Shown one piece after another: positions 167-11,744 of a stretch of 12,210 nucleotides of DNA. The DNA comes from a virus (lineage: Duplodnaviria > Heunggongvirae > Uroviricota > Caudoviricetes): IMG/VR virus record IMGVR_UViG_3300029647_000066; one strand, given 5' to 3'. The translations under genes and the position numbers were made by a program. The notes under the pieces are model-generated. The model saw only the letters and a program-made list of their open reading frames with translations, was not told the DNA's origin and searched no databases. Within the stretch, counting starts at the first letter, position 1. Every line of letters begins with the position of its first letter.

Positions 167-1162
167 TTATGGACGCATTATGGACATTCCTGACACCGGG
201 TTAAGAGTCACAGCATCTTGTAAGAAATCCGGTGCAAAGTGTGCGTAGGTCATAGTTTGCTGAATGTTAGAATGACCCAGGATGCGCTGCAATGTGATTA
301 TGTTACCTCCATTCATTATAAAATGTGTGGCAAATGTATGCCTCAAAACATGCACTGCCTGTCCGTCAGGTAAATCGGGTTTTACTTCCCTGAGAGCGTT
401 GCGCACTTTGTAGTAACTGGCATTAAAAAGCCTGCCAGAATTTTTGGTTTTGATCCGTTTAATCAAGTCCTGCGAAACGGGAATTGTCCTGCGCTTTCCG
501 TTTTTAGTTTTCATAAACGTAACCATCTGGTTAATGATGTGTTCAGCTTTTAAATTAGACACTTCACTCCAGCGTCCACCAGTAGAAAGGCAGACCAGAG
601 TCGCATTTAATTCATCACCATCAAGCATGGATAACAGTCGCGTAATCTCTTCACTGGACAAAAAAGCCATTTCTGTAACAGCTTCACGTAACCGCTTAAC
701 CTCACGGAACGGGTTGTGAGAGTGGTATTCACCGGCGTCAATTAACTTGGTGAACATCCCGCTCATTATTGCCAGATGCCGATTTACGCTGGCTGGTTTT
801 AGACCATCGTTCATCATTACAACGCGATAATCAGTTATCGTTTTCTTTGTTAGCTGGTCAGCTCTGGACACTCCCATTTCTGCAAATTTGGCGATTATTG
901 TCGTTAAACGCCCCCGTTCAATATCTCCACGCTCATGTGATTTTCCGTGATATATCCACCATCTGCCTAACAACTCTGTAAGAGTTCGGCGGTCGGCTGG
1001 TTTCTCCAGCCACTCTTTGTTGTGGTAGTTAACCAGTACATGACGTCCGAATGCTTGAGCTTCACCTTTAGTTTTAAATTTCCGCCTGATACGTTTTCCA
1101 TCTGCACCCTGCGGTCTGACGTCCACTTCATAACGACCATCATCGAGCTTTTTAATAGACAT
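167..1162 (-). CDS. int: Tyrosine integrase, P2-family
   Basis: 331-aa ORF with ATG at 1162 preceded by GGAGGG. N-terminus MSIKKLDDGRYEVD and C-terminal HxLRHTFATH, ITLQRILGH and TYAHFAP motifs are typical of P2/186-type integrases. Same strand as, and downstream of, the C repressor as in P2. Confidence 0.9.
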   Translation of the reverse strand: MSIKKLDDGRYEVDVRPQGADGKRIRRKFKTKGEAQAFGRHVLVNYHNKEWLEKPADRRTLTELLGRWWIYHGKSHERGDIERGRLTTIIAKFAEMGVSRADQLTKKTITDYRVVMMNDGLKPASVNRHLAIMSGMFTKLIDAGEYHSHNPFREVKRLREAVTEMAFLSSEEITRLLSMLDGDELNATLVCLSTGGRWSEVSNLKAEHIINQMVTFMKTKNGKRRTIPVSQDLIKRIKTKNSGRLFNASYYKVRNALREVKPDLPDGQAVHVLRHTFATHFIMNGGNIITLQRILGHSNIQQTMTYAHFAPDFLQDAVTLNPVSGMSIMRP

Positions 1163-3512: not shown

Positions 3513-3784
3513 GCATTCGTATTGAAATTGGCGAACGTTATGTCGTTACCAGTGACAGCTTTCAGTTTATTCTCCACGAGAAAAAGAGAGCGGAAAGCGG
3601 TAAAAACGCCGGTCAGGAATGGCTGTCGGTGGTTGGTTATTACCCGAAATTAAGCCAGCTCGTTTCCGGCCTGATGCATCACGATATTCTGACCGGAAGC
3701 GCAAAGTCTTTTGCTGATTTAAACGCGCAGGTTGAGCAACTCAGCAGGCGTTGTTCAGAGGCTTTTGGCTCATATGGCCGTTAA
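3509..3784 (+). CDS. Small hypothetical early protein (P2 orf83 position)
   Basis: 91-aa ORF with ATG at 3509 overlapping the previous stop (ATGA). Its 3' end overlaps the gene A start by 11 nt. Confidence 0.6.
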   Translation: MSIRIEIGERYVVTSDSFQFILHEKKRAESGKNAGQEWLSVVGYYPKLSQLVSGLMHHDILTGSAKSFADLNAQVEQLSRRCSEAFGSYGR

Positions 3785-6059
3785 AGCCTCCGGGCGTTTT
3801 GTCCCTCCGTCAGCATTTGCCGCAGGCACCGGTAAGGCGTTTACCGGTGCTTATGCATGGAACGCGCCACGCGAGGCTGTCGGGCGCGAAAGACCCCTTA
3901 CACGTGACGAGATGCGTCAGGTGCAAGGTGTTTTATCCACGATTAACCGCCTGCCTTACTTTTTGCGCTCGCTGTTTACCTCACGCTATGACTACATCCG
4001 GCGCAATAAAAGCCCGGTGCACGGGTTTTATTTCCTCACATCCACTTTTCAGCGTCGTTTATGGCCGCGCATTGAGCGCGTGAATCAGCGCCATGAAATG
4101 AACACCGACGCGTCGTTGCTGTTTCTGGCAGAGCGTGACCATTATGCGCGTCTGCCGGGGGTGAATGACAAGGAACTGAAAAAGTTTGCCGCCCGTATCT
4201 CATCGCAGCTTTTCATGATGTATGAGGAACTCTGCGATGCATGGGTTGATGCACATGGCGAGAAAGAATCGCTGTTTACGGATGAGGCTCAGGCGCATCT
4301 GTATGGTCATGTTGCTGGCGCTGCACGAGCTTTCAATATTTCCCCTCTCTACTGGAAAAAATACCGTAAAGGACAGATGACCACGAGGCAGGCATATTCT
4401 GCCATTGCCCGTCTGTTTAACGATGAGTGGTGGATTCATCAGCTTAAAGGTCAGCGTATGCGCTGGCATGAGGCGTTACTGATTGCTGTCGGGGAGGTGA
4501 ATAAAGACCGTTCTCCTTATGCCAGTAAACATGCCATTCGTGATGTGCGTGCACGCCGCCAGGCAAATCTGGAATTTCTTAAATCGTGTGACCTTGAAAA
4601 CAGGGAAACCGGCGAGCGCATCGACCTTATCAGTAAGGTGATGGGCAGTATTTCTAATCCTGAAATTCGCCGGATGGAGCTGATGAACACCATTGCCGGT
4701 ATTGAGCGTTACGCCGCCGCAGAGGGTGATGTGGGGATGTTTATCACGCTGACCGCGCCGTCAAAGTATCACCCGACACGTCAGGTCGGAAAAGGCGAAA
4801 GTAAAACCGTCCAGCTAAATCACGGCTGGAACGATGAGGCATTTAATCCAAAGGATGCGCAGCGTTATCTCTGCCGTATCTGGAGCCTGATGCGCACGGC
4901 ATTCAAGGATAATGATTTACAGGTCTACGGTTTGCGTGTCGTCGAGCCACACCACGACGGAACGCCGCACTGGCATATGATGCTTTTTTGTAATCCACGC
5001 CAGCGTAACCAGATTATCGAAATCATGCGTCGCTATGCGCTCAAAGAGGATGGCGACGAAAGAGGAGCCGCGCGAAACCGTTTTCAGGCAAAACACCTTA
5101 ACCGGGGCGGTGCTGCGGGGTATATCGCGAAATACATCTCAAAAAACATCGATGGCTATGCACTGGATGGTCAGCTCGATAACGATACCGGCAGACCGCT
5201 GAAAGACACTGCTGCGGCTGTTACCGCATGGGCGTCAACGTGGCGCATCCCACAATTTAAAACGGTTGGTCTGCCGACAATGGGGGCTTACCGTGAACTA
5301 CGCAAATTGCCTCGCGGCGTCAGCATTGCTGATGAGTTTGACGAACGCGTTGAGGCTGCACGTGCCGCCGCAGACAGTGGTGATTTTGCGTTGTATATCA
5401 GCGCGCAGGGTGGGGCAAATGTTCCGCGTGATTGTCAGACTGTCAGGGTTGCCCGTAGTCCGTCGGATGACGTTAACGAGTACGAGGAAGAAGTCGAGAG
5501 AGTGGTCGGCATTTACGCGCCGCATCTCGGCGCGCGTCATATTCATATCACCAGAACGACGGACTGGCGCATTGTGCCGAAAGTTCCGGTCGTTGAGCCT
5601 TTGACTTTAAAAAGCGGCATCGCCGCGCCTCGGAGTCCTGTCAATAACTGTGGAAAGCTCACCGGTGGTGATACTTCGTTACCGGCTCCCACACCTTCTG
5701 AGCACGCCGCAGCCGTGCTTAATCTGGTTGATGACGGTGTTATCGAATGGAATGACCCGGAGGTCGTGAGGGCGCTCAGGGGCGCATTAAAACACGGCCT
5801 GAGAACACCAAACCGTCAGCAAAGAAACGGAAGCCCGTTAAAACCGAATGAAATAGCGCCATCGGCCAGGCTGACCCGGTCGGAGCGTATGCAAATTACC
5901 CGTATCCGCGTTGACCTTGCTCAGAACGGTATCAGGCCGCAGCGATGGGAGCTTGAGGCGCTGGCGCGTGGCGCGACCGTAAATTATGACGGGAAAAAAT
6001 TCACGTATCCGGTCGCTGATGAGTGGCCGGGATTCTCAACAGTAATGGAGTGGAAATGA
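3774..6059 (+). CDS. A: Rolling-circle replication initiator endonuclease, P2 gene A family
   Basis: ORF track starts at 3732, but the internal ATG at 3774 (MAVKASGRF) gives 761 aa and avoids a long overlap with the upstream gene. HUH-type motif in GLRVVEPHHDGTPHWHMMLF and paired-tyrosine motif in AAGYIAKYISKNIDGY are hallmarks of phiX174/P2 A-type initiators. Confidence 0.9.
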   Translation: MAVKASGRFVPPSAFAAGTGKAFTGAYAWNAPREAVGRERPLTRDEMRQVQGVLSTINRLPYFLRSLFTSRYDYIRRNKSPVHGFYFLTSTFQRRLWPRIERVNQRHEMNTDASLLFLAERDHYARLPGVNDKELKKFAARISSQLFMMYEELCDAWVDAHGEKESLFTDEAQAHLYGHVAGAARAFNISPLYWKKYRKGQMTTRQAYSAIARLFNDEWWIHQLKGQRMRWHEALLIAVGEVNKDRSPYASKHAIRDVRARRQANLEFLKSCDLENRETGERIDLISKVMGSISNPEIRRMELMNTIAGIERYAAAEGDVGMFITLTAPSKYHPTRQVGKGESKTVQLNHGWNDEAFNPKDAQRYLCRIWSLMRTAFKDNDLQVYGLRVVEPHHDGTPHWHMMLFCNPRQRNQIIEIMRRYALKEDGDERGAARNRFQAKHLNRGGAAGYIAKYISKNIDGYALDGQLDNDTGRPLKDTAAAVTAWASTWRIPQFKTVGLPTMGAYRELRKLPRGVSIADEFDERVEAARAAADSGDFALYISAQGGANVPRDCQTVRVARSPSDDVNEYEEEVERVVGIYAPHLGARHIHITRTTDWRIVPKVPVVEPLTLKSGIAAPRSPVNNCGKLTGGDTSLPAPTPSEHAAAVLNLVDDGVIEWNDPEVVRALRGALKHGLRTPNRQQRNGSPLKPNEIAPSARLTRSERMQITRIRVDLAQNGIRPQRWELEALARGATVNYDGKKFTYPVADEWPGFSTVMEWK

Positions 6060-6511
6060 TGGCAAAAATTCACGAGGTAAAGCTGCACGCAAAATATTTT
6101 GACCTTGTGCTGGAAGGAAAGAAACGCGCAGAGTTTCGGAAAAATGACCGTAATTATGAGCGCGGGGACACGTTGATTTTGCATGAATGGGTGCAGGGTG
6201 TGTATACGGGGCGAAAGGTTGAAGCCCGGATAACAGATGTTACTGACTTGTCAGACTGGCTGGAAGATTATGTCTTGCTAAGTATTGAGCTGCTTAATAC
6301 AGGCGCATATGAGTTTGTGAACTGGAAAGAACTTAGTGAGCGTGGTCTGGTATTCAGAATTAATCATGAAATTATGCATCAGCTCGGCCTTGCTGTTGTG
6401 TATGAACCAGAGACGGGGATGTCTGGCGGGGCAGTGGTTGGTGCGGATGGGATATGGAACTATTCAGATGAACAGGTGGAGCGTGCACAGCAAAACGGGT
6501 GGCTTGGATAA
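6056..6511 (+). CDS. ASCH / DUF3850-like domain protein
   Basis: ORF track starts at a GTG at 6023; the ATG at 6056 overlaps the A stop (ATGA) and follows GGAG. N-terminal KIHEVKLHAKYFDLVLEGKKRAEFRKNDRNYERGDTLILHEW fits the DUF3850/ASCH pattern common in phage genomes. C-terminal half uncharacterised. Confidence 0.7.
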   Translation: MMAKIHEVKLHAKYFDLVLEGKKRAEFRKNDRNYERGDTLILHEWVQGVYTGRKVEARITDVTDLSDWLEDYVLLSIELLNTGAYEFVNWKELSERGLVFRINHEIMHQLGLAVVYEPETGMSGGAVVGADGIWNYSDEQVERAQQNGWLG

Positions 6512-6717
6512 TGCACAGAATACCAGGCGAGATACCGCAGCATAAAACTAAAAATATCAAGCTGATGGCCATTGTTCACCGTCTACAGCAGATTATGGTC
6601 AACGAAAATCTGACGCCCGATGAGCTGGTCGGGTGTGCCGAAATAGTCCGGGATAATTACGTATGGCTTAACTATATCGGTCAGCCCAGCGCTGCACCGC
6701 CACCACGCAGACGATAG
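6511..6717 (+). CDS. Small hypothetical protein
   Basis: ORF track starts at a GTG at 6499; the ATG at 6511 overlaps the previous stop (TAATG). 68 aa, no recognisable domain. Last ORF before the compositional shift to AT-rich DNA. Confidence 0.4.
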   Translation: MHRIPGEIPQHKTKNIKLMAIVHRLQQIMVNENLTPDELVGCAEIVRDNYVWLNYIGQPSAAPPPRRR

Positions 6718-7025: not shown

Positions 7026-7262
7026 ATGATGAATATATTTGAACGTATTATAGGTAAAGCTGCTATTGAAAAGGAAAGAGAACTGGCGAGGAGGCTTGAA
7101 GCATCTGGAACAAACACTGTTGAGGTGGTAGGTCGAGGCGCGATTATCACGTCTAAAGAAGACTTGGCAAGCTCAGATACAGTAAAATTGATGAAAATTA
7201 AAGCAAGAAAAATAGTTTCTGAGCAGGTAAAGCAAGAAGAAAAAATGGCTAAAGGGAATTAA
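7026..7262 (+). CDS. Small charged hypothetical protein, first gene of the rightward cargo operon
   Basis: 78-aa ORF, Lys/Glu-rich and probably helical. GGAGG at 7017-7021 four nt before the ATG. AT-rich codon usage unlike the backbone. The next gene starts 3 nt after its stop. Confidence 0.6.
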   Translation: MMNIFERIIGKAAIEKERELARRLEASGTNTVEVVGRGAIITSKEDLASSDTVKLMKIKARKIVSEQVKQEEKMAKGN

Positions 7263-7264
7263 TA

Positions 7265-8026
7265 ATGTTTGCTTTATTAATTATTCCATTACTTGTGAGT
7301 GGTTATATTGTATTAACCACTCATCCTTATCATTTCTATAGATTACACCGTTATGATGGGCAGTTGTTATATATGAAGTCAGCCGCCTTTGGTCTGTGGT
7401 GTTTTATATGGACATTGATTATAGCTTACTTAATAAAATGGATATGTCCTAGCTTCCATCCTGTCACGATGGTTCGGGAACAATTAGATCTCAAACTTAG
7501 TGACAATGGTACTGAAAGAATCATAGGATGGATGATTTTACTTTCATGTGGAACGATATTTTTGGCTTGGATATGGAGTGTCGGTGCTAGATATTTGGTT
7601 ATATATAGAGCTAAAATTATAAATTATATCCAAGGGGTAAAGGCTGCCAATATTGATTATGAGAATCTTGTCATGCTAAGGATGAGGCAAGAGCTTATTA
7701 ATGATAATCCAATGGATGAAATATTTTTTGATTCGTTAGTTGATAGACGTTCAATACTTATTACGTTGCAAAATAAAAAGACATATGTAGGAATTGTTAA
7801 CGCATTAGGTGAGCCTAACGAGAAAGAAGGACCTAACCAGTATGTTTCAATCTATCCTATTATCTCTGGGTATAGAGATAAGGATTCATTGAAAGTAATC
7901 TTGGTGAATGAATATAGAGAGCTTGAGGATGCTGATACTAGTATCATCTTTCCACTAAAAGAAATTTCGCAAGTTTCTTGGTTTGATATGGATATTCATA
8001 AAATAGTTGAAAATAATAAGGTGTAG
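7265..8026 (+). CDS. Predicted integral membrane protein (about 3 TM helices N-terminal, soluble C-terminal domain), function unknown
   Basis: 253-aa ORF with AAGGGA seven nt before the ATG. Hydrophobic segments FALLIIPLLVSGYIVL, AAFGLWCFIWTLIIAYLIKWI and IIGWMILLSCGTIFLAWIWSVGA, followed by a hydrophilic domain of about 130 aa. AT-rich. Ends just before a hairpin shared with the convergent operon. Confidence 0.7.
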   Translation: MFALLIIPLLVSGYIVLTTHPYHFYRLHRYDGQLLYMKSAAFGLWCFIWTLIIAYLIKWICPSFHPVTMVREQLDLKLSDNGTERIIGWMILLSCGTIFLAWIWSVGARYLVIYRAKIINYIQGVKAANIDYENLVMLRMRQELINDNPMDEIFFDSLVDRRSILITLQNKKTYVGIVNALGEPNEKEGPNQYVSIYPIISGYRDKDSLKVILVNEYRELEDADTSIIFPLKEISQVSWFDMDIHKIVENNKV

Positions 8027-8029
8027 TAA

Positions 8030-8054
8030 ATGGTCACCTATAAAAGGTGACCAT
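8030..8054. terminator. Bidirectional hairpin terminator between the convergent cargo operons
   Basis: Perfect 10-bp inverted repeat ATGGTCACCT (8030-8039) and AGGTGACCAT (8045-8054) with a 5-nt loop. It sits between the stop of the + gene (8026) and the stop of the - gene (8060), with T-rich sequence downstream on the + strand and A-rich sequence upstream. Confidence 0.6.
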
Positions 8055-8059
8055 AATGC

Positions 8060-10324
8060 TTATTTTTGACGAATCCTGATTTTTGGTTGTTCACGAACAA
8101 CAATATCAGTTTCTTTCCAACCAAGATTATTTATTTCAACCTCGGCTTCGTTGTAGACTGTAGTAGAATTGGCAAGAGATCTTAACGTAATAGCCAATAC
8201 AGCACGTTGAGGTGAAGATAGAGGCTCTTGCTCTGCTCGTCTCTGAACATCAAGTTTAAGTCTCCATTGCTCCCCATTTATACCTTGCGGAAATTGTTTT
8301 CTATAAACTTTGACTGGAGACCATTTGAAGCCATTTTCTATCAGTACCTTTTCAAATAATTCACTCTTTTCTTTTATTTGTGGAATTTTTCCGCTATGTA
8401 TCCATTTAGCGTTAACTGGATCATAAGTGTAAGTCCCGAATGACACATCCACATTAGAACGGCAATATTCAGATGGGTAGTCATAATCAAGCGGTGGAGA
8501 ATAAACGAGTGTCATAATAATTTCACCTGTGAATTTTCCATCCTCAGTACGTAATGACTGTGGTATTACAAATGGCGTTCTACTGAATTCAATACCTTCT
8601 CGGGTATCTATTTCAAATAGAAATGTAATCTCATTTTTATTGCAACCAATAATATCATTTATATGATCGCTTGGGCGTCCAAATCCTTGATAATTAAACG
8701 CATAATGCTCCGTTTTGGCTGGTGAGTTTTTTAACGCAGAATGAATTAATAGTGCCTTGATACGTTCAGGCGATGGTGAAATAGAACCATTAACATCTAG
8801 TTCATGCCACAGTGATGCCGCTAAACTTGAGATTAACGGTGCTGATAAACTTGTGCCAATACTTTCGCAAAGAGCATTGTCCTCGCCAATAGCTATGATT
8901 CCGGTATGTTCACAGTTTAATTTACTGTCACAATTACCTCCAAAGTGATTTATCTCTGGTTTGGGTATAAAGGCTGGGCCGGGACCTCTTCTAGAAAAAG
9001 ATGAAGGTTCAAATCTTTTGACCACAGAGTCAGACGATTCTAAATGGGCAACTGAGCCAACAGTTAATGAACGAACAGAATCTGCGGGGGCTGATATTCT
9101 GTCATGCCCACCTAATTCTTGAGGAGGCCAGGTTCGTTGAGGATCATAAATGTAGTTGCCGGATGCTACGACGAAAAGACAATCATGCTCATCATGAAGT
9201 GCATTTAAAAAATGCCCCAATTCAGAGAAGCTGTCTTCAGAACATGGGGATTGACAACCTAATGACAGATTCCATACACGTACTTCTGGATAGGTGGTCA
9301 CAGCCTCTCGGATAGCTTTCATTAATTGTGGCAATTTGAGCGTACCATCTTTGGGAAAGGCTGCAACATCAACAATTTCAGCTTGGCATTGAGGAAAACC
9401 AGCATAGTTATTCAACCATCTTCCATTAATTGCTAAACTTGCAACCATGTTCCCATGAGAATAGTCGTGTTCTCCTTTTACTAAATCTAAACTATCCCAA
9501 ATCCATGGCCTAAGTATGTTGTTATTGGGATCGACTCCGCTATCTATAATTCCGAGTAGTGGATAATGTTTATCCTCTTGAGGTAAGGGAAAATCATCTA
9601 GGTCTAGAGTTTCAGCAGGAATATATTGCGATACTGTATGAGTAAGACCAAATGTTGGCATAGGTTCTAATTTTCGTATGCCAATAAAACTTGCCAGTTG
9701 GGCGATGTTATCATTCCCTTTTACTTCATATATACTCAAATCTGAACTGATATCATACTTTTTGGGTTTTTGTATTCCTAGTTCATCTGCAAATTCCATT
9801 AATTCTTTGTCGATACTGCGGTTAGTTGTTCTATCTTTATGGTCAAAGAGTTTCAGAAGAAAACTATCTGATTTATTTTTATCTATAACATCATGGTTAA
9901 GACTAAAAGGTTCGATCTTTTCAATTACAGCAATATGTACTGTCCCATTATGAGAATTAGTGCTATTTTCAATTTTTTTGCGAAGTTGTGCTAACCCTTT
10001 TTCAGTAACACTTATAAGTAATTCTCCAAAATTATCACTGCCTATTACGGGACATGTATTATCACCTAATAGGCTTGATGGGCGATGTGACTTAGCAAGA
10101 GCTTTTTCATGAAGAGTAACTCTAGCCACCGCCGGTATATTGGGCCATTTTTTAAATGAGCTCTGGAAAAAATTTTTAACGTCATCGACTTCTTGTTTGA
10201 GTCTATTTTTTAGACTAGTTGTTACTGTTCGGATAGGTTGTTTCTTTCCGAAATTATATGTTTTTTCAGTAAAATCTTGAGGTGTCGCCTCAATTATTTT
10301 TATTGGTCTTTCTTTGTTACTCAT
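8060..10324 (-). CDS. Subtilisin-like serine peptidase (S8 family), predicted cytoplasmic, with N- and C-terminal extension domains
   Basis: 754-aa ORF. S8 catalytic motifs in canonical order: Asp in LLGIIDSGVD (about residue 261), His in DYSHGNMVASLA (about 290), oxyanion Asn in FVVASGNY (about 390), Ser in GTSLSAPLISSLAASL (about 492). No N-terminal hydrophobic signal sequence. Its ATG overlaps the stop of the upstream ATPase gene (ATGA at 10321-10324). Confidence 0.9.
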   Translation of the reverse strand: MSNKERPIKIIEATPQDFTEKTYNFGKKQPIRTVTTSLKNRLKQEVDDVKNFFQSSFKKWPNIPAVARVTLHEKALAKSHRPSSLLGDNTCPVIGSDNFGELLISVTEKGLAQLRKKIENSTNSHNGTVHIAVIEKIEPFSLNHDVIDKNKSDSFLLKLFDHKDRTTNRSIDKELMEFADELGIQKPKKYDISSDLSIYEVKGNDNIAQLASFIGIRKLEPMPTFGLTHTVSQYIPAETLDLDDFPLPQEDKHYPLLGIIDSGVDPNNNILRPWIWDSLDLVKGEHDYSHGNMVASLAINGRWLNNYAGFPQCQAEIVDVAAFPKDGTLKLPQLMKAIREAVTTYPEVRVWNLSLGCQSPCSEDSFSELGHFLNALHDEHDCLFVVASGNYIYDPQRTWPPQELGGHDRISAPADSVRSLTVGSVAHLESSDSVVKRFEPSSFSRRGPGPAFIPKPEINHFGGNCDSKLNCEHTGIIAIGEDNALCESIGTSLSAPLISSLAASLWHELDVNGSISPSPERIKALLIHSALKNSPAKTEHYAFNYQGFGRPSDHINDIIGCNKNEITFLFEIDTREGIEFSRTPFVIPQSLRTEDGKFTGEIIMTLVYSPPLDYDYPSEYCRSNVDVSFGTYTYDPVNAKWIHSGKIPQIKEKSELFEKVLIENGFKWSPVKVYRKQFPQGINGEQWRLKLDVQRRAEQEPLSSPQRAVLAITLRSLANSTTVYNEAEVEINNLGWKETDIVVREQPKIRIRQK

Positions 10325-11484
10325 AATATCTCTCTATAGTTCTTAGTTAGCCTTGACACTTTAGCATTTGAAAGCCCTAGTATTTTTGCTATCTTTCGTA
10401 TTGTAAATCTTTTGGGATTGTATTCTCTGAGAGTGGTCACAATCTTTATAAGTAAATTATCTTCTTCATCAAATGTAACTCCCTTCGCTTCTAAGATAGC
10501 CTCGACTAAAAATCGGGTATCGATTTGTTTATTATTGTAAACCAGAGCATGTCGCTCAGATCTTAAGCAGCATTGTTCTATAAATGAGCAGTTTAGCCCT
10601 GATGATATTTCCGCAAGGTCATCAACAAAATCGTCATATGTAGCTTTTATGTTTGAATATTGTTCAAATAGTTGTTTTCTGACTTCAAAATCAGGCAATC
10701 CAATAGATATTCTATACTCAAAGCGCCTCCAAACTGCGCTATCTAGAAGATTTTCATGATTACTTGCAGCAATCAATATTGTTTCTTCAGGTAGATTGTC
10801 AATATTTTGCAATAAAGAAACCACCACCCTCTTCAGTTCACCTAACTCATGCTGATCATCTCTAGCCTTTGCTAGAGAATCTAGTTCATCTAGAAATAAA
10901 ACACATGGTGCTTTACTTGCATACTCAAATAGCTGCCTGATATTTTTAGAAGTAGACCCCAGATATGATGAGACTAAGGAGTCACATCTTGCAGTAAGAA
11001 GCGGTAAATTTAGACAGGATGCAATATATTTTGATGTCAAGGTTTTACCACAACCTGGTGGCCCATATAAAATCATAGAGGATGTCACGCCAAGACCGGC
11101 ATCCTTTAATTCTTTAGCTCGTTCAGTGAAAGTCAAAAATTCTTTAATTTTTTTCAGAGTGCTATCTTTCAACAATGGGAGTTGAATTTCAGAAGACGGT
11201 TGAGTTACGTCTGCTAAATCAAATTTAGTTTCTTTATCTACAGGTAATGTATCAAGACGTTCAAAAATAGGTGATGTACTGCGTGATACTTTCTGCAAGT
11301 TAAACGTGTTTTTATCTTGAATACTACCTCTAATGGCTGAAGCAAGCTCAGGCAGCCCCATAGAATCATAGGAACGCGCGAGTTTCGAAGCCTGCCGAAC
11401 AAAAGCAACTTTATCCCCTTTGAGTCCAAGACTGATAAGCTGCGAAAGTATCTCGTTTGTGGTCATTTGTGATACAAACCTCAT
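10321..11484 (-). CDS. AAA+ ATPase (classic-clade AAA domain) with C-terminal HTH-like tail
   Basis: 387-aa ORF. Walker A in LYGPPGCGKT (about residue 147), Walker B in CVLFLDELD (about 199-200), second-region-of-homology-like segment in AASNHENLLDSAVWRRFEYRISIGLP. C-terminal RKIAKILGLSNAKVSRLTKNY resembles a helix-turn-helix. First gene of the leftward cargo operon; start could instead be the second ATG at 11466. Confidence 0.9.
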   Translation of the reverse strand: MRFVSQMTTNEILSQLISLGLKGDKVAFVRQASKLARSYDSMGLPELASAIRGSIQDKNTFNLQKVSRSTSPIFERLDTLPVDKETKFDLADVTQPSSEIQLPLLKDSTLKKIKEFLTFTERAKELKDAGLGVTSSMILYGPPGCGKTLTSKYIASCLNLPLLTARCDSLVSSYLGSTSKNIRQLFEYASKAPCVLFLDELDSLAKARDDQHELGELKRVVVSLLQNIDNLPEETILIAASNHENLLDSAVWRRFEYRISIGLPDFEVRKQLFEQYSNIKATYDDFVDDLAEISSGLNCSFIEQCCLRSERHALVYNNKQIDTRFLVEAILEAKGVTFDEEDNLLIKIVTTLREYNPKRFTIRKIAKILGLSNAKVSRLTKNYREIL

Positions 11485-11725
11485 TAATCTGTTGTCTAAA
11501 TGGCTTATAGGTGAGACAAATTTCTATTTTAATGTAGTTTATATGTATTTTGGTGAAACGAACACTATGTTTTACATAAATCTTTCAGGTTTGGAGTTCT
11601 TGGAGGGCATAGAGTTGCATCAATTTGCATTCTAATTAGACTTTTTTATTGCTATCGTATTCTACATGTGACTAGGTCTGCCCTTCCTGATGCGTTTGCA
11701 TTAAAACCTCCCCATGAAGCGGGCG

Positions 11726-11744
11726 GGCGAGGCGGGGAAAGCAC
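11726..11744 (+). other. cos site (P2-type 19-nt cohesive end)
   Basis: GGCGAGGCGGGGAAAGCAC is present exactly and matches the P2 cohesive-end sequence as I recall it. It lies in a GC-rich block just after the cargo island, where the P2 map places cos (after the tin/old slot). Confidence 0.6.

Follow-up and report, generated by a model that had tools for sequence, protein, structure and literature searches.

An intact ietAS pair among the cargo genes of a P2-like Escherichia coli prophage, at the cos-proximal defence hotspot

The two coupled genes described here are an intact ietAS system, an AAA+ ATPase (IetA) followed by an S8 subtilase (IetS), located among the cargo genes of a P2-like E. 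coli prophage, at its cos-proximal gpA-gpQ defence hotspot. An earlier sequence-only reading of the window, the whole 12,210-nt stretch of DNA analysed, had proposed a candidate antiphage defence system and named the ietAS architecture as its match; the ietAS identification was right, but the system is an already catalogued defence/toxin-antitoxin pair and not a new one. The exact arrangement is listed in Table S5A of Rousset et al. 2022 (WP_000210436 + ... + WP_000066157) under the RefSeq accessions of the proteins encoded here, and Table S5B gives ietAS as P2-hotspot system #7. Since ietAS is already recorded in the P2 hotspot with the same accessions, the locus is no new kind of system. What the present work adds is small: the pore loop and helix-turn-helix (HTH)-like tail of IetA, a set of TTYGTNTCAC repeats upstream of ietA, and a two-gene cassette that diverges together with the pair. 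Feature coordinates are collected in Table 1.

Table 1. Positions of ietAS, its motifs and its neighbours in the window.
Feature	Position	Strand	Remarks
Gene A (replication)	3732-6059		Left flank of cargo
Two-gene cassette travelling with ietAS	7026..8026	+	Convergent to ietS
78-aa protein gene	7026-7262	+	
253-aa protein gene	7265-8026	+	Three N-terminal TM-like segments (hydropathy)
Perfect 10-bp palindrome (ATGGTCACCT-ATAAA-AGGTGACCAT)	8030..8054	.	Candidate bidirectional terminator between convergent ietS and 253-aa gene
ietS, 754-aa cytoplasmic S8 subtilase (toxin/effector)	8060..10324	-	Pfam, PADLOC, NCBIfam
S8 catalytic domain of IetS	8678..9562	-	PF00082, residues 255-549
Ser492 (GTSLSAP)	codon 8849-8851	-	Catalytic
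Asn390 (ASGNY)	codon 9155-9157	-	Oxyanion
His290 (SHGNMVAS)	codon 9455-9457	-	Catalytic
Asp261 (IIDSGVD)	codon 9542-9544	-	Catalytic
ATGA overlap, ietA stop/ietS start	10321..10324	-	Read from sequence; translational coupling
ietA, 381-aa classical-clade AAA+ ATPase (antitoxin/regulator)	10321..11466	-	PADLOC, Pfam, NCBIfam, RefSeq start
C-terminal three-helix HTH-like tail of IetA (FTIRKIAKILGLSNAKVSRLT)	10327..10464	-	Family conservation, AlphaFold2
AAA+ core of IetA	10699..11076	-	Walker A GPPGCGKT, Lys codon 11044-11046
Three direct repeats TTYGTNTCAC	11469..11562	-	Spacing exactly 42 bp; candidate operator/promoter region
P2 cos cohesive-end sequence GGCGAGGCGGGGAAAGCAC	11726..11744	+	Exact match, 0 expected by chance; right edge of cargo hotspot
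Portal gene Q	begins 11914		Right of cos

ietAS was reportedly described by Gao and colleagues in 2020 as an anti-phage module of the ATPase IetA and the S8 peptidase IetS. The present copy shares with the family, as represented in PADLOC (IetA/IetS), DefenseFinder (Gao_Iet) and NCBIfam (IteA/IteS), an AAA+ gene followed by a coupled S8 gene on one strand, full-length HMM matches, intact ATPase and catalytic motifs, and carriage on a mobile element. Pfam and PADLOC profile searches, which had been proposed as a check, matched both proteins: AAA (1.1e-31) and PDLC02196 (9.1e-132, 438 bits, residues 9-382 against model positions 3-370 of 374) for IetA, and Peptidase_S8 (PF00082, 6.7e-24) and PDLC02197 (1.1e-273, 908 bits, residues 1-747 against model positions 1-747 of 749) for IetS. 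The NCBIfam models IteA_antiphage (NF042959) and IteS_antiphage (NF042956) were by far the best matches, likewise over the full length, with 387.3 bits against an equivalog cut-off of 510 and 782.4 bits against one of 900. The pair thus belongs to the wider family but falls outside the strict NCBI equivalog. Because of these scores, its proteins carry only the RefSeq names 'AAA family ATPase' and 'S8 family peptidase', the strict PGAP cut-offs leaving this lineage as a generic ATPase and peptidase. The present IetA is only 34% identical to that of the commonest P2-hotspot ietAS lineage, and IetS is distant from its Ri/Ti-plasmid homologues (about 24% identity over residues 246-681, the protease part only, E=6e-14). 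Because the HMM matches are full length and identical proteins occur on hundreds of contigs (the cluster 100% identical to IetA is present on 690), we rejected chance open reading frames as an explanation.

Outside the cargo, the window is 95-97% identical to Peduovirus genomes, which identifies the prophage as P2-like. The pair had been noted to sit in AT-rich DNA exactly where P2 carries tin and old, and both observations held up: the cargo has a GC content of 0.33-0.43 versus 0.44-0.56 for the P2 backbone, and ietAS is placed between gene A on one side and an exact cos and gene Q on the other, in the published hotspot defined as gpA-cos-gpQ, the slot holding tin and old in P2 (Rousset et al. 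2022, PMC9122126). The locus thus has in common with tin/old and other gpA-gpQ cargo its cos-proximal position, low GC and an anti-phage role, whereas Old (an ATPase-TOPRIM nuclease) and Tin are unrelated to IetA and IetS in protein and mechanism. Among sequenced phage records, we found no close copies of the present ietAS, the best being 32% identical and from a lambdoid phage.

The longest open reading frame for ietA (10321-11484, minus strand, 387 aa) had been taken as the gene. We corrected the start to the ATG at 11466, which is the RefSeq start, the point at which the family models begin, and the sole start conserved across seven aligned upstream regions; the first six codons from 11484 are non-conserved. 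The description of the product as a classic AAA+ ATPase was well founded, with Walker A and Walker B (FLDELD) intact and accompanied by a pore-loop-1 S-Y-L-G, a sensor-1 Asn and the WRRF arginines. The Walker motifs, sensor-1 and arginines are invariant in the family alignment, and the Ar-hydrophobic-Gly pore loop is conserved in the family. Sequence search of the PDB returned generic AAA proteins and no solved IetA structure, the nearest relatives being VAT, p97, FtsH, Vps4, Msp1 and Trip13. These features suggest that IetA may be an unfoldase-type motor, a classical-clade remodelling ATPase bearing a pore loop. Its C-terminal tail is modelled by AlphaFold2 as helices at residues 335-349, 356-363 and 367-380; all 17 Pfam HTH matches to this tail are sub-threshold (best HTH_28, E=0.001), and Rousset et al. 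2022 annotate these proteins as AAA/HTH_50.

IetS comprises an N-terminal region (residues 1-245), the catalytic domain and a C-terminal beta-sandwich (565-745). Its Asp/His/Asn/Ser motifs, previously described as intact, are so: the four residues are invariant in 33 aligned homologues with identity down to 37%, with no loss of a catalytic residue, and in an alignment with the Tk-subtilisin-like 9ues_B they fall on its catalytic residues. The lack of a signal peptide was likewise borne out, by a hydrophilic N-terminus (MSNKERPIKIIEATPQDF) and a highest 19-residue Kyte-Doolittle mean of 1.15; that of IetA is 1.06, and IetA has no signal-peptide-like or TM-like stretch either. A secreted or virulence protease was rejected because IetS has neither signal peptide nor TM segment by hydropathy. 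The N-terminal region carries an invariant AxAKSHRP motif and, in the predicted structure, residues 154-221 follow a beta-alpha-beta-beta-alpha-beta order, as in the subtilisin propeptide, while the model aligns with pro-Tk-SP over 408 residues. IetS thus probably has a zymogen-like build with a propeptide-like N-terminal module. The pro-subtilisins Tk-SP and KP-43, which have a C-terminal beta-jelly-roll, share with IetS the catalytic and C-terminal beta-sandwich folds and probably the propeptide-like module; unlike IetS, they are secreted, and IetS has a much larger N-terminal region and the invariant AxAKSHRP. Generic subtilases (E about 5e-4) were the only matches to IetS in a sequence search of the PDB, with no solved IetS structure among them.

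Translational coupling through the ATGA had also been read correctly, and the identical 4-nt overlap is present in another locus (L006). Conserved co-occurrence, raised earlier as a check, was found: of 75 loci, 74 have an IetA homologue immediately before IetS in the same orientation, and the remaining one has an IetA fragment. These loci span Proteobacteria, Planctomycetes, Firmicutes, the candidate phyla radiation (Saccharimonas, Uhrbacteria) and one archaeon, and the same gene order is found on pRi1724, a Dongshaea plasmid and a lambdoid phage. ietAS is therefore widespread across many phyla, besides being a validated defence and toxin-antitoxin system; a cited survey found it in 35 of 79 porcine ETEC strains. 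The present locus offers a compact E. coli ietAS in its native context, with the candidate operator, the HTH-like IetA tail and the linked membrane-protein cassette as leads.

The last of the upstream TTYGTNTCAC repeats ends 2 nt before the ietA ATG. The window contains no further match, where chance would give 0.29 matches in all for this motif, which was defined post hoc from the data. Seven loci with IetA proteins of 54-84% identity conserve the boxes, and pairs of TTTGTnTCA also occur upstream of more distant ietA genes (L095 and L097). From this pattern, the repeats are a candidate operator of ietAS. A consensus scan upstream of ietA gave no convincing sigma-70 promoter; by eye, a weak candidate (TTAAAA-17-TATAAG) lies over the middle repeat.

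We consider it reasonably probable that this intact ietAS acts as a toxin-antitoxin, in which an IetS protease restrained by IetA would mediate phage-triggered abortive infection, expressed from an autoregulated operon. The toxin-antitoxin behaviour, the protease requirement and abortive infection are drawn from work on other members. By published accounts (PMC13069673 among the sources), ietAS entered the literature as a toxin-antitoxin, the toxin being IetS and the antitoxin IetA; protease activity is needed for defence, and a plasmid with mutated ietA could not be constructed (NAR 2026, PMC13069673). With B. cereus ietAS, cultures collapse at high MOI, indicating abortive infection, and the system turns toxic on expression of YosG of phage SPbeta. 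An E. coli ietAS (ECOR52) cloned alone gave only limited protection in one study and may be of another lineage than the present one. Given the low identities and the sub-cut-off scores noted above, it is by extension that we infer such a phenotype for the lineage described here.

One translationally coupled transcript would yield IetA and IetS. Unrestrained activity of the cytoplasmic subtilase would be toxic, and IetA, presumably a hexamer, may spend ATP to remodel, unfold or sequester IetS and in this way keep it inactive. An early phage product could then block or saturate IetA, or otherwise lift the restraint, and the freed IetS would cleave essential cellular or phage proteins, bringing arrest or death before phage release. 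The HTH-like tail of IetA would probably bind the three TTYGTNTCAC repeats and thereby autoregulate the operon. Autoregulation of this kind is usual for antitoxins. Restraint of IetS by IetA resembles the switching off of HORMA-CdnC by Trip13 in CBASS as an analogy of logic only, ietAS having neither a HORMA protein nor a cyclase and using a protease as effector. A propeptide-like N-terminal region of IetS would equally fit IetA as an activator; the genetics argue against that role. As the sequence-only reading had stated, papers of 2024 and 2026 (2026: PMC13069673) still describe the mechanism of ietAS as unknown, and our literature search found no mechanistic or cryo-EM paper on ietAS.

ietAS could be mainly an addiction (post-segregational killing) module stabilising its carrier prophage or island, with any phage defence as a by-product, which we think fairly unlikely. 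Yamamoto and colleagues reportedly described IetA/IetS in 2009 as a toxin-antitoxin of Agrobacterium pTiC58. In published accounts (PMC13069673 among the sources), this pair and its homologue S026/S025 of Salmonella Genomic Island 1 (SGI1), which shares 50% and 36% identity with IetA and IetS, are the founding members and figure as stability determinants of a plasmid and an island and not as phage defence; they share with the present locus the two-protein architecture and gene order (as in the pRi1724 relative). An addiction role would also suit the frequency of ietAS homologues on conjugative and mobilizable plasmids, and partitioning systems are found in about a quarter of P2 hotspots (PMC9122126), so maintenance functions do occur in the gpA-gpQ slot. 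However, cloned ietAS homologues give protection from phages outside the element that carries them (PMC13069673 among the sources), and toxicity is triggered by a specific phage protein, YosG. The addiction and defence roles are compatible with each other.

It is distinctly improbable, in our judgement, that the pair is an ATP-dependent protease of two components, a split FtsH/Lon analogue in which selected phage or host proteins unfolded by IetA are fed to IetS for direct, non-suicidal interference. The conserved pore-loop motif of IetA is that of substrate-threading unfoldases, its fold is close to FtsH, with the i-AAA protease, PAN and Mpa also among the closest folds, and coupling and near-universal co-occurrence would fit such a machine. 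To our knowledge, however, S8 subtilases are not chambered peptidases that dock under AAA+ rings. Moreover, in the published genetic work IetA neutralises IetS toxicity and does not enable it, ietA mutants could not be constructed (PMC13069673), and the collapse of cultures at high MOI points to abortive infection.

A further reading concerns the convergent cassette, whose 78-aa and 253-aa proteins have no Pfam or PADLOC matches. The cassette co-occurs and co-diverges with the present ietAS lineage: in complete E. coli genomes it never occurs apart from this ietAS (12 of 12), and all loci with IetS of at least 58% identity have it in the same convergent orientation, the four proteins diverging in step. 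Linkage extends across P2 hotspots, a lambdoid prophage and non-prophage islands. In the enterobacterial lineage, ietAS, the 78-aa protein and the 253-aa membrane protein, as protease-activated effector, sensor or anchor, might thus form a four-gene functional unit. A precedent is ietHAS (Liu-DS4; PMC13069673), an ietAS variant with an SNF2 helicase, in which the third gene is needed; both loci have an ietAS core with linked genes, whereas the present one has no helicase and instead, on the opposite strand, genes for a small protein and for a membrane protein. We nevertheless regard the four-gene unit as unlikely. The cassette is encoded on the other strand and set off from ietS by a terminator-like palindrome; about 78 other ietAS loci lack it, phage phiES15 and Pseudomonas phages carry it with no ietAS, and Rousset et al. 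2022 treat it as a separate system (#57). A P2-type cos also persists beside ietA in several 'non-P2' loci, and the linkage could therefore reflect common descent from P2 cargo. A membrane-protein partner general to ietAS was rejected, being found at only a few of 69 loci.

We also put forward, with little confidence, an extension in which the 253-aa protein of such a unit would be a protease-gated membrane effector or infection sensor and a DNA-binding IetA would read the phased TTYGTNTCAC array; if this were true, the lineage would be a tractable model for solving the mechanism of ietAS. The cassette may be an independent cargo module or else an accessory specific to this ietAS lineage; its two proteins match PHROGs 37504 and 3630.

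The sequence-only reading had claimed that this stretch carries an AAA+ ATPase gene followed by an S8 subtilase gene, a candidate ietAS defence pair; the observation was confirmed and the interpretation is supported. Both minus-strand ORFs are present as claimed, with an ATGA overlap at 10321-10324 read from the sequence. The upstream product, IetA, matches Pfam AAA (1.1e-31), and the downstream product, IetS, matches Peptidase_S8 (6.7e-24), with Asp261, His290, Asn390 and Ser492 aligning with the catalytic residues of solved subtilisins and invariant among 33 homologues down to 37% identity. A hydrophobic N-terminus was found in neither protein. The proposed match to ietAS also held, since the PADLOC profiles for both proteins were matched end to end (IetA, 438 bits; IetS, 908 bits over 747 of 749 model positions). 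The NCBIfam models 'anti-phage ATPase IteA' and 'S8 family anti-phage peptidase IteS' were the best by far, at scores below their strict equivalog cut-offs (387 vs 510 and 782 vs 900, respectively), which accounts for the generic RefSeq labels of both genes. PHROGs contains both families, annotated as 'unknown function'. We consider membership of the pair in the ietAS family virtually certain.

We scanned an IetS alignment against one genome per species and examined the best 80 of 198 confirmed loci, which span Proteobacteria, Planctomycetota, Acidobacteriota, Bacteroidota and Firmicutes, as well as Saccharimonas and Uhrbacteria (candidate phyla radiation) and a methanogen. Upstream sequence was long enough at 75 of these; in 74 the gene directly preceding ietS on the same strand encodes an IetA homologue (36-84% identity), and the 75th has an IetA fragment, indicating that the pair is obligate. 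A lack of conserved co-occurrence, which the sequence-only reading had named as a refuting outcome, is thereby clearly contradicted. The same gene order is found on pRi1724, a Dongshaea plasmid and a lambdoid coliphage.

ORF calls and Pfam matches show that the window carries the left-hand arm of a prophage related to P2. Many Peduovirus genomes are 95-97% identical to it outside the cargo, and similarity to other P2-like phages breaks off between about 6730 and 11650, where GC content is 0.33-0.43 vs 0.44-0.56 in the backbone. This low-GC stretch between gene A and cos/Q places ietAS in the gpA-cos-gpQ cargo slot of P2-like prophages, a hotspot defined by Rousset et al. 2022, and bears out the proposed location, as reference P2 carries tin and old there (Rousset et al. 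2022). The DUF3850/ASCH protein and the 68-aa ORF at the left edge are found again in many of the hotspot arrangements listed for P2 (Rousset et al. 2022). In that survey ietAS is hotspot system #7, with 400 occurrences, and Table S5A lists the exact arrangement of the window with the same protein accessions as the E. coli DCE7 annotation (WP_000210436, WP_000066157, WP_000457800, WP_021570510, WP_000554775, WP_032144906); the locus was thus already catalogued and is not itself novel. The DCE7 prophage, 100% identical to the window over the stretch tested, adjoins pflA and runs on into Q, P, O, N and tail genes. Beyond the window (DCE7 locus, 24183-27055), four of its tail/baseplate genes are annotated as frameshifted pseudogenes, reflecting either a defective prophage or indel errors of assembly.

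Features of the window, with positions and strands
Feature	Position	Strand	Remark
int	167-1162	-	P2-like left arm
C repressor, cox, B, several small genes			P2-like left arm
Replication gene A	3732-6059		backbone, left of hotspot
Gene for DUF3850/ASCH plus DUF7415 protein, 162 aa	6023-6511	+	after gene A, left hotspot edge
68-aa ORF	within 6023-6717	+	downstream of gene A, left hotspot edge
p78 gene, 78 aa	7026-7262	+	convergent to ietS
p253 gene, 253 aa	7265-8026	+	convergent to ietS; three N-terminal TM-like segments
Perfect 10-bp palindrome, 5-nt loop	8030-8054		between convergent ietS and p253 gene
ietS, 754 aa	8060-10324	-	S8 subtilase
ietA ORF, 387 aa	10321-11484	-	AAA+ ATPase
TTYGTNTCAC direct repeats (three)	11469-11478, 11511-11520, 11553-11562	-	ietA coding strand; exactly 42 bp apart
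ATGCA(A) repeat cluster, aATGCAAattgATGCAActctATGC	11590-11640	-	roughly 10-11 bp spacing; between cos and TTYGTNTCAC repeats
P2 cos sequence	11726-11744	+	exact sequence match
Portal gene Q, C-terminal part	from 11914		annotation of E. coli DCE7

As cited in later papers, ietAS was originally reported from pTiC58, where it stabilises the plasmid as a toxin-antitoxin system in which IetS is the toxin and IetA the antitoxin (Yamamoto 2009), and was subsequently shown to have anti-phage activity (Gao et al. 2020). Salmonella Genomic Island 1 is stabilised by a homologous pair. In B. cereus, ietAS works through abortive infection and turns toxic upon expression of the SPbeta protein YosG, and E. 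coli ECOR52 ietAS has been tested alone and combined with other systems. In a 2026 study, a helicase-bearing variant was found to need protease activity, a plasmid carrying a mutated ietA proved impossible to construct, and the anti-phage mechanism was stated to be still unknown. Taking IetS toxicity, neutralisation by IetA, the protease requirement and abortive infection from this literature, our leading model is that IetA would spend ATP and hold the toxic protease inactive, that a phage protein would lift this restraint upon infection, and that freed IetS would cut essential proteins, such that the cell would die ahead of phage release. The restraint step is modelled, as an unproven analogy, on Trip13 acting on HORMA in CBASS, with IetA likened to Trip13. 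As a whole the model is tentative, its chances falling slightly short of even.

Alignment of 31 IetA homologues revealed a pore-loop motif, S-Y-L-G (aromatic-hydrophobic-glycine), between Walker A and Walker B, with Ser, Leu and Gly invariant and Tyr or Phe at the aromatic position in 29, and a strongly conserved stretch past Walker B (DDQHELGELKRVVV). In the predicted IetA model an N-terminal three-helix region and a disordered linker are seen, and the segment ahead of the AAA core, LPVDxExxxxLxD, is conserved. The C-terminal tail, predicted to form three helices, is conserved across the family and gave 17 helix-turn-helix matches, all sub-threshold; Rousset et al. annotate IetA proteins as AAA/HTH_50. 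IetS was modelled by AlphaFold2 with good confidence (pLDDT 88.8, pTM 0.91), and by our own reading of the secondary structure in that model residues 154-221 appear to follow the beta-alpha-beta-beta-alpha-beta order of the subtilisin propeptide. In the N-terminal region, AxAKSHRP (residues 75-82; window about 10079-10102, minus strand) is invariant in the 33 homologues and may serve as a site of recognition or processing.

The longest ietA ORF does extend to 11484 as had been read, but the conserved start is the ATG at 11466 (381 aa), which is the RefSeq start and the only start kept across seven related upstream regions. GAGG precedes this ATG inside the last of three TTYGTNTCAC repeats, which stops two bases short of it. 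The window holds no further match, and 0.29 would be expected by chance; this statistic is only indicative, since the motif was chosen once the data had been inspected. Conservation argues more strongly: the boxes are kept in seven loci despite IetA identities of only 54-84%, and TTTGTnTCA pairs with 21 bp spacing precede ietA genes that are more distant still. We infer a candidate operator in these repeats, to which the HTH-like tail would bind, so that the operon would regulate itself as toxin-antitoxin operons usually do. The ATGCA(A) cluster is likewise conserved in related loci, including three of those compared (L007, L088 and L094).

We also noted a two-gene cassette (p78 and p253) whose products matched no Pfam or PADLOC profile. 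Functional coupling of the cassette to ietAS would fit its presence in exactly the same 12 complete E. coli genomes as this ietAS, its retention in the same arrangement at every related locus with IetS of at least 58% identity, and, across Enterobacterales, the parallel divergence of IetA, IetS, p253 and p78 at six loci (84/90/88/89, 65/78/76/72, 69/72/74/66, 55/60/56/54, 57/59/55/56 and 54/58/54/55% identity, respectively). Loci with this linkage lie in P2 hotspots (Rahnella) and in a lambdoid prophage (Salmonella), and also on islands devoid of phage structural genes (Pectobacterium, E. cloacae and a metagenomic chromosome). However, more distant ietAS loci lack the cassette, which also occurs without ietAS at prophage-end cargo positions, adjoining attP of Cronobacter phage phiES15 and in Pseudomonas phages, and Rousset et al. 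2022 treat it as a separate uncharacterised P2-hotspot system (#57, 75 occurrences). Moreover, a P2-type cos adjoins ietA at four compared loci (L006, L007, L088 and L094), even in islands without nearby P2 structural genes (E. cloacae, metagenomic chromosome), so part of the linkage could stem from common descent as P2 cargo; the cos-ietAS block may come from decayed P2-like prophages or cos-bearing satellites. We regard functional coupling as improbable. The cassette is a candidate for a defence or exclusion module in its own right. Inexpensive tests are possible for the cassette, the operator and the HTH-like tail alike. The palindrome between the cassette and ietS may act as a bidirectional terminator for both ietS and the p253 gene.
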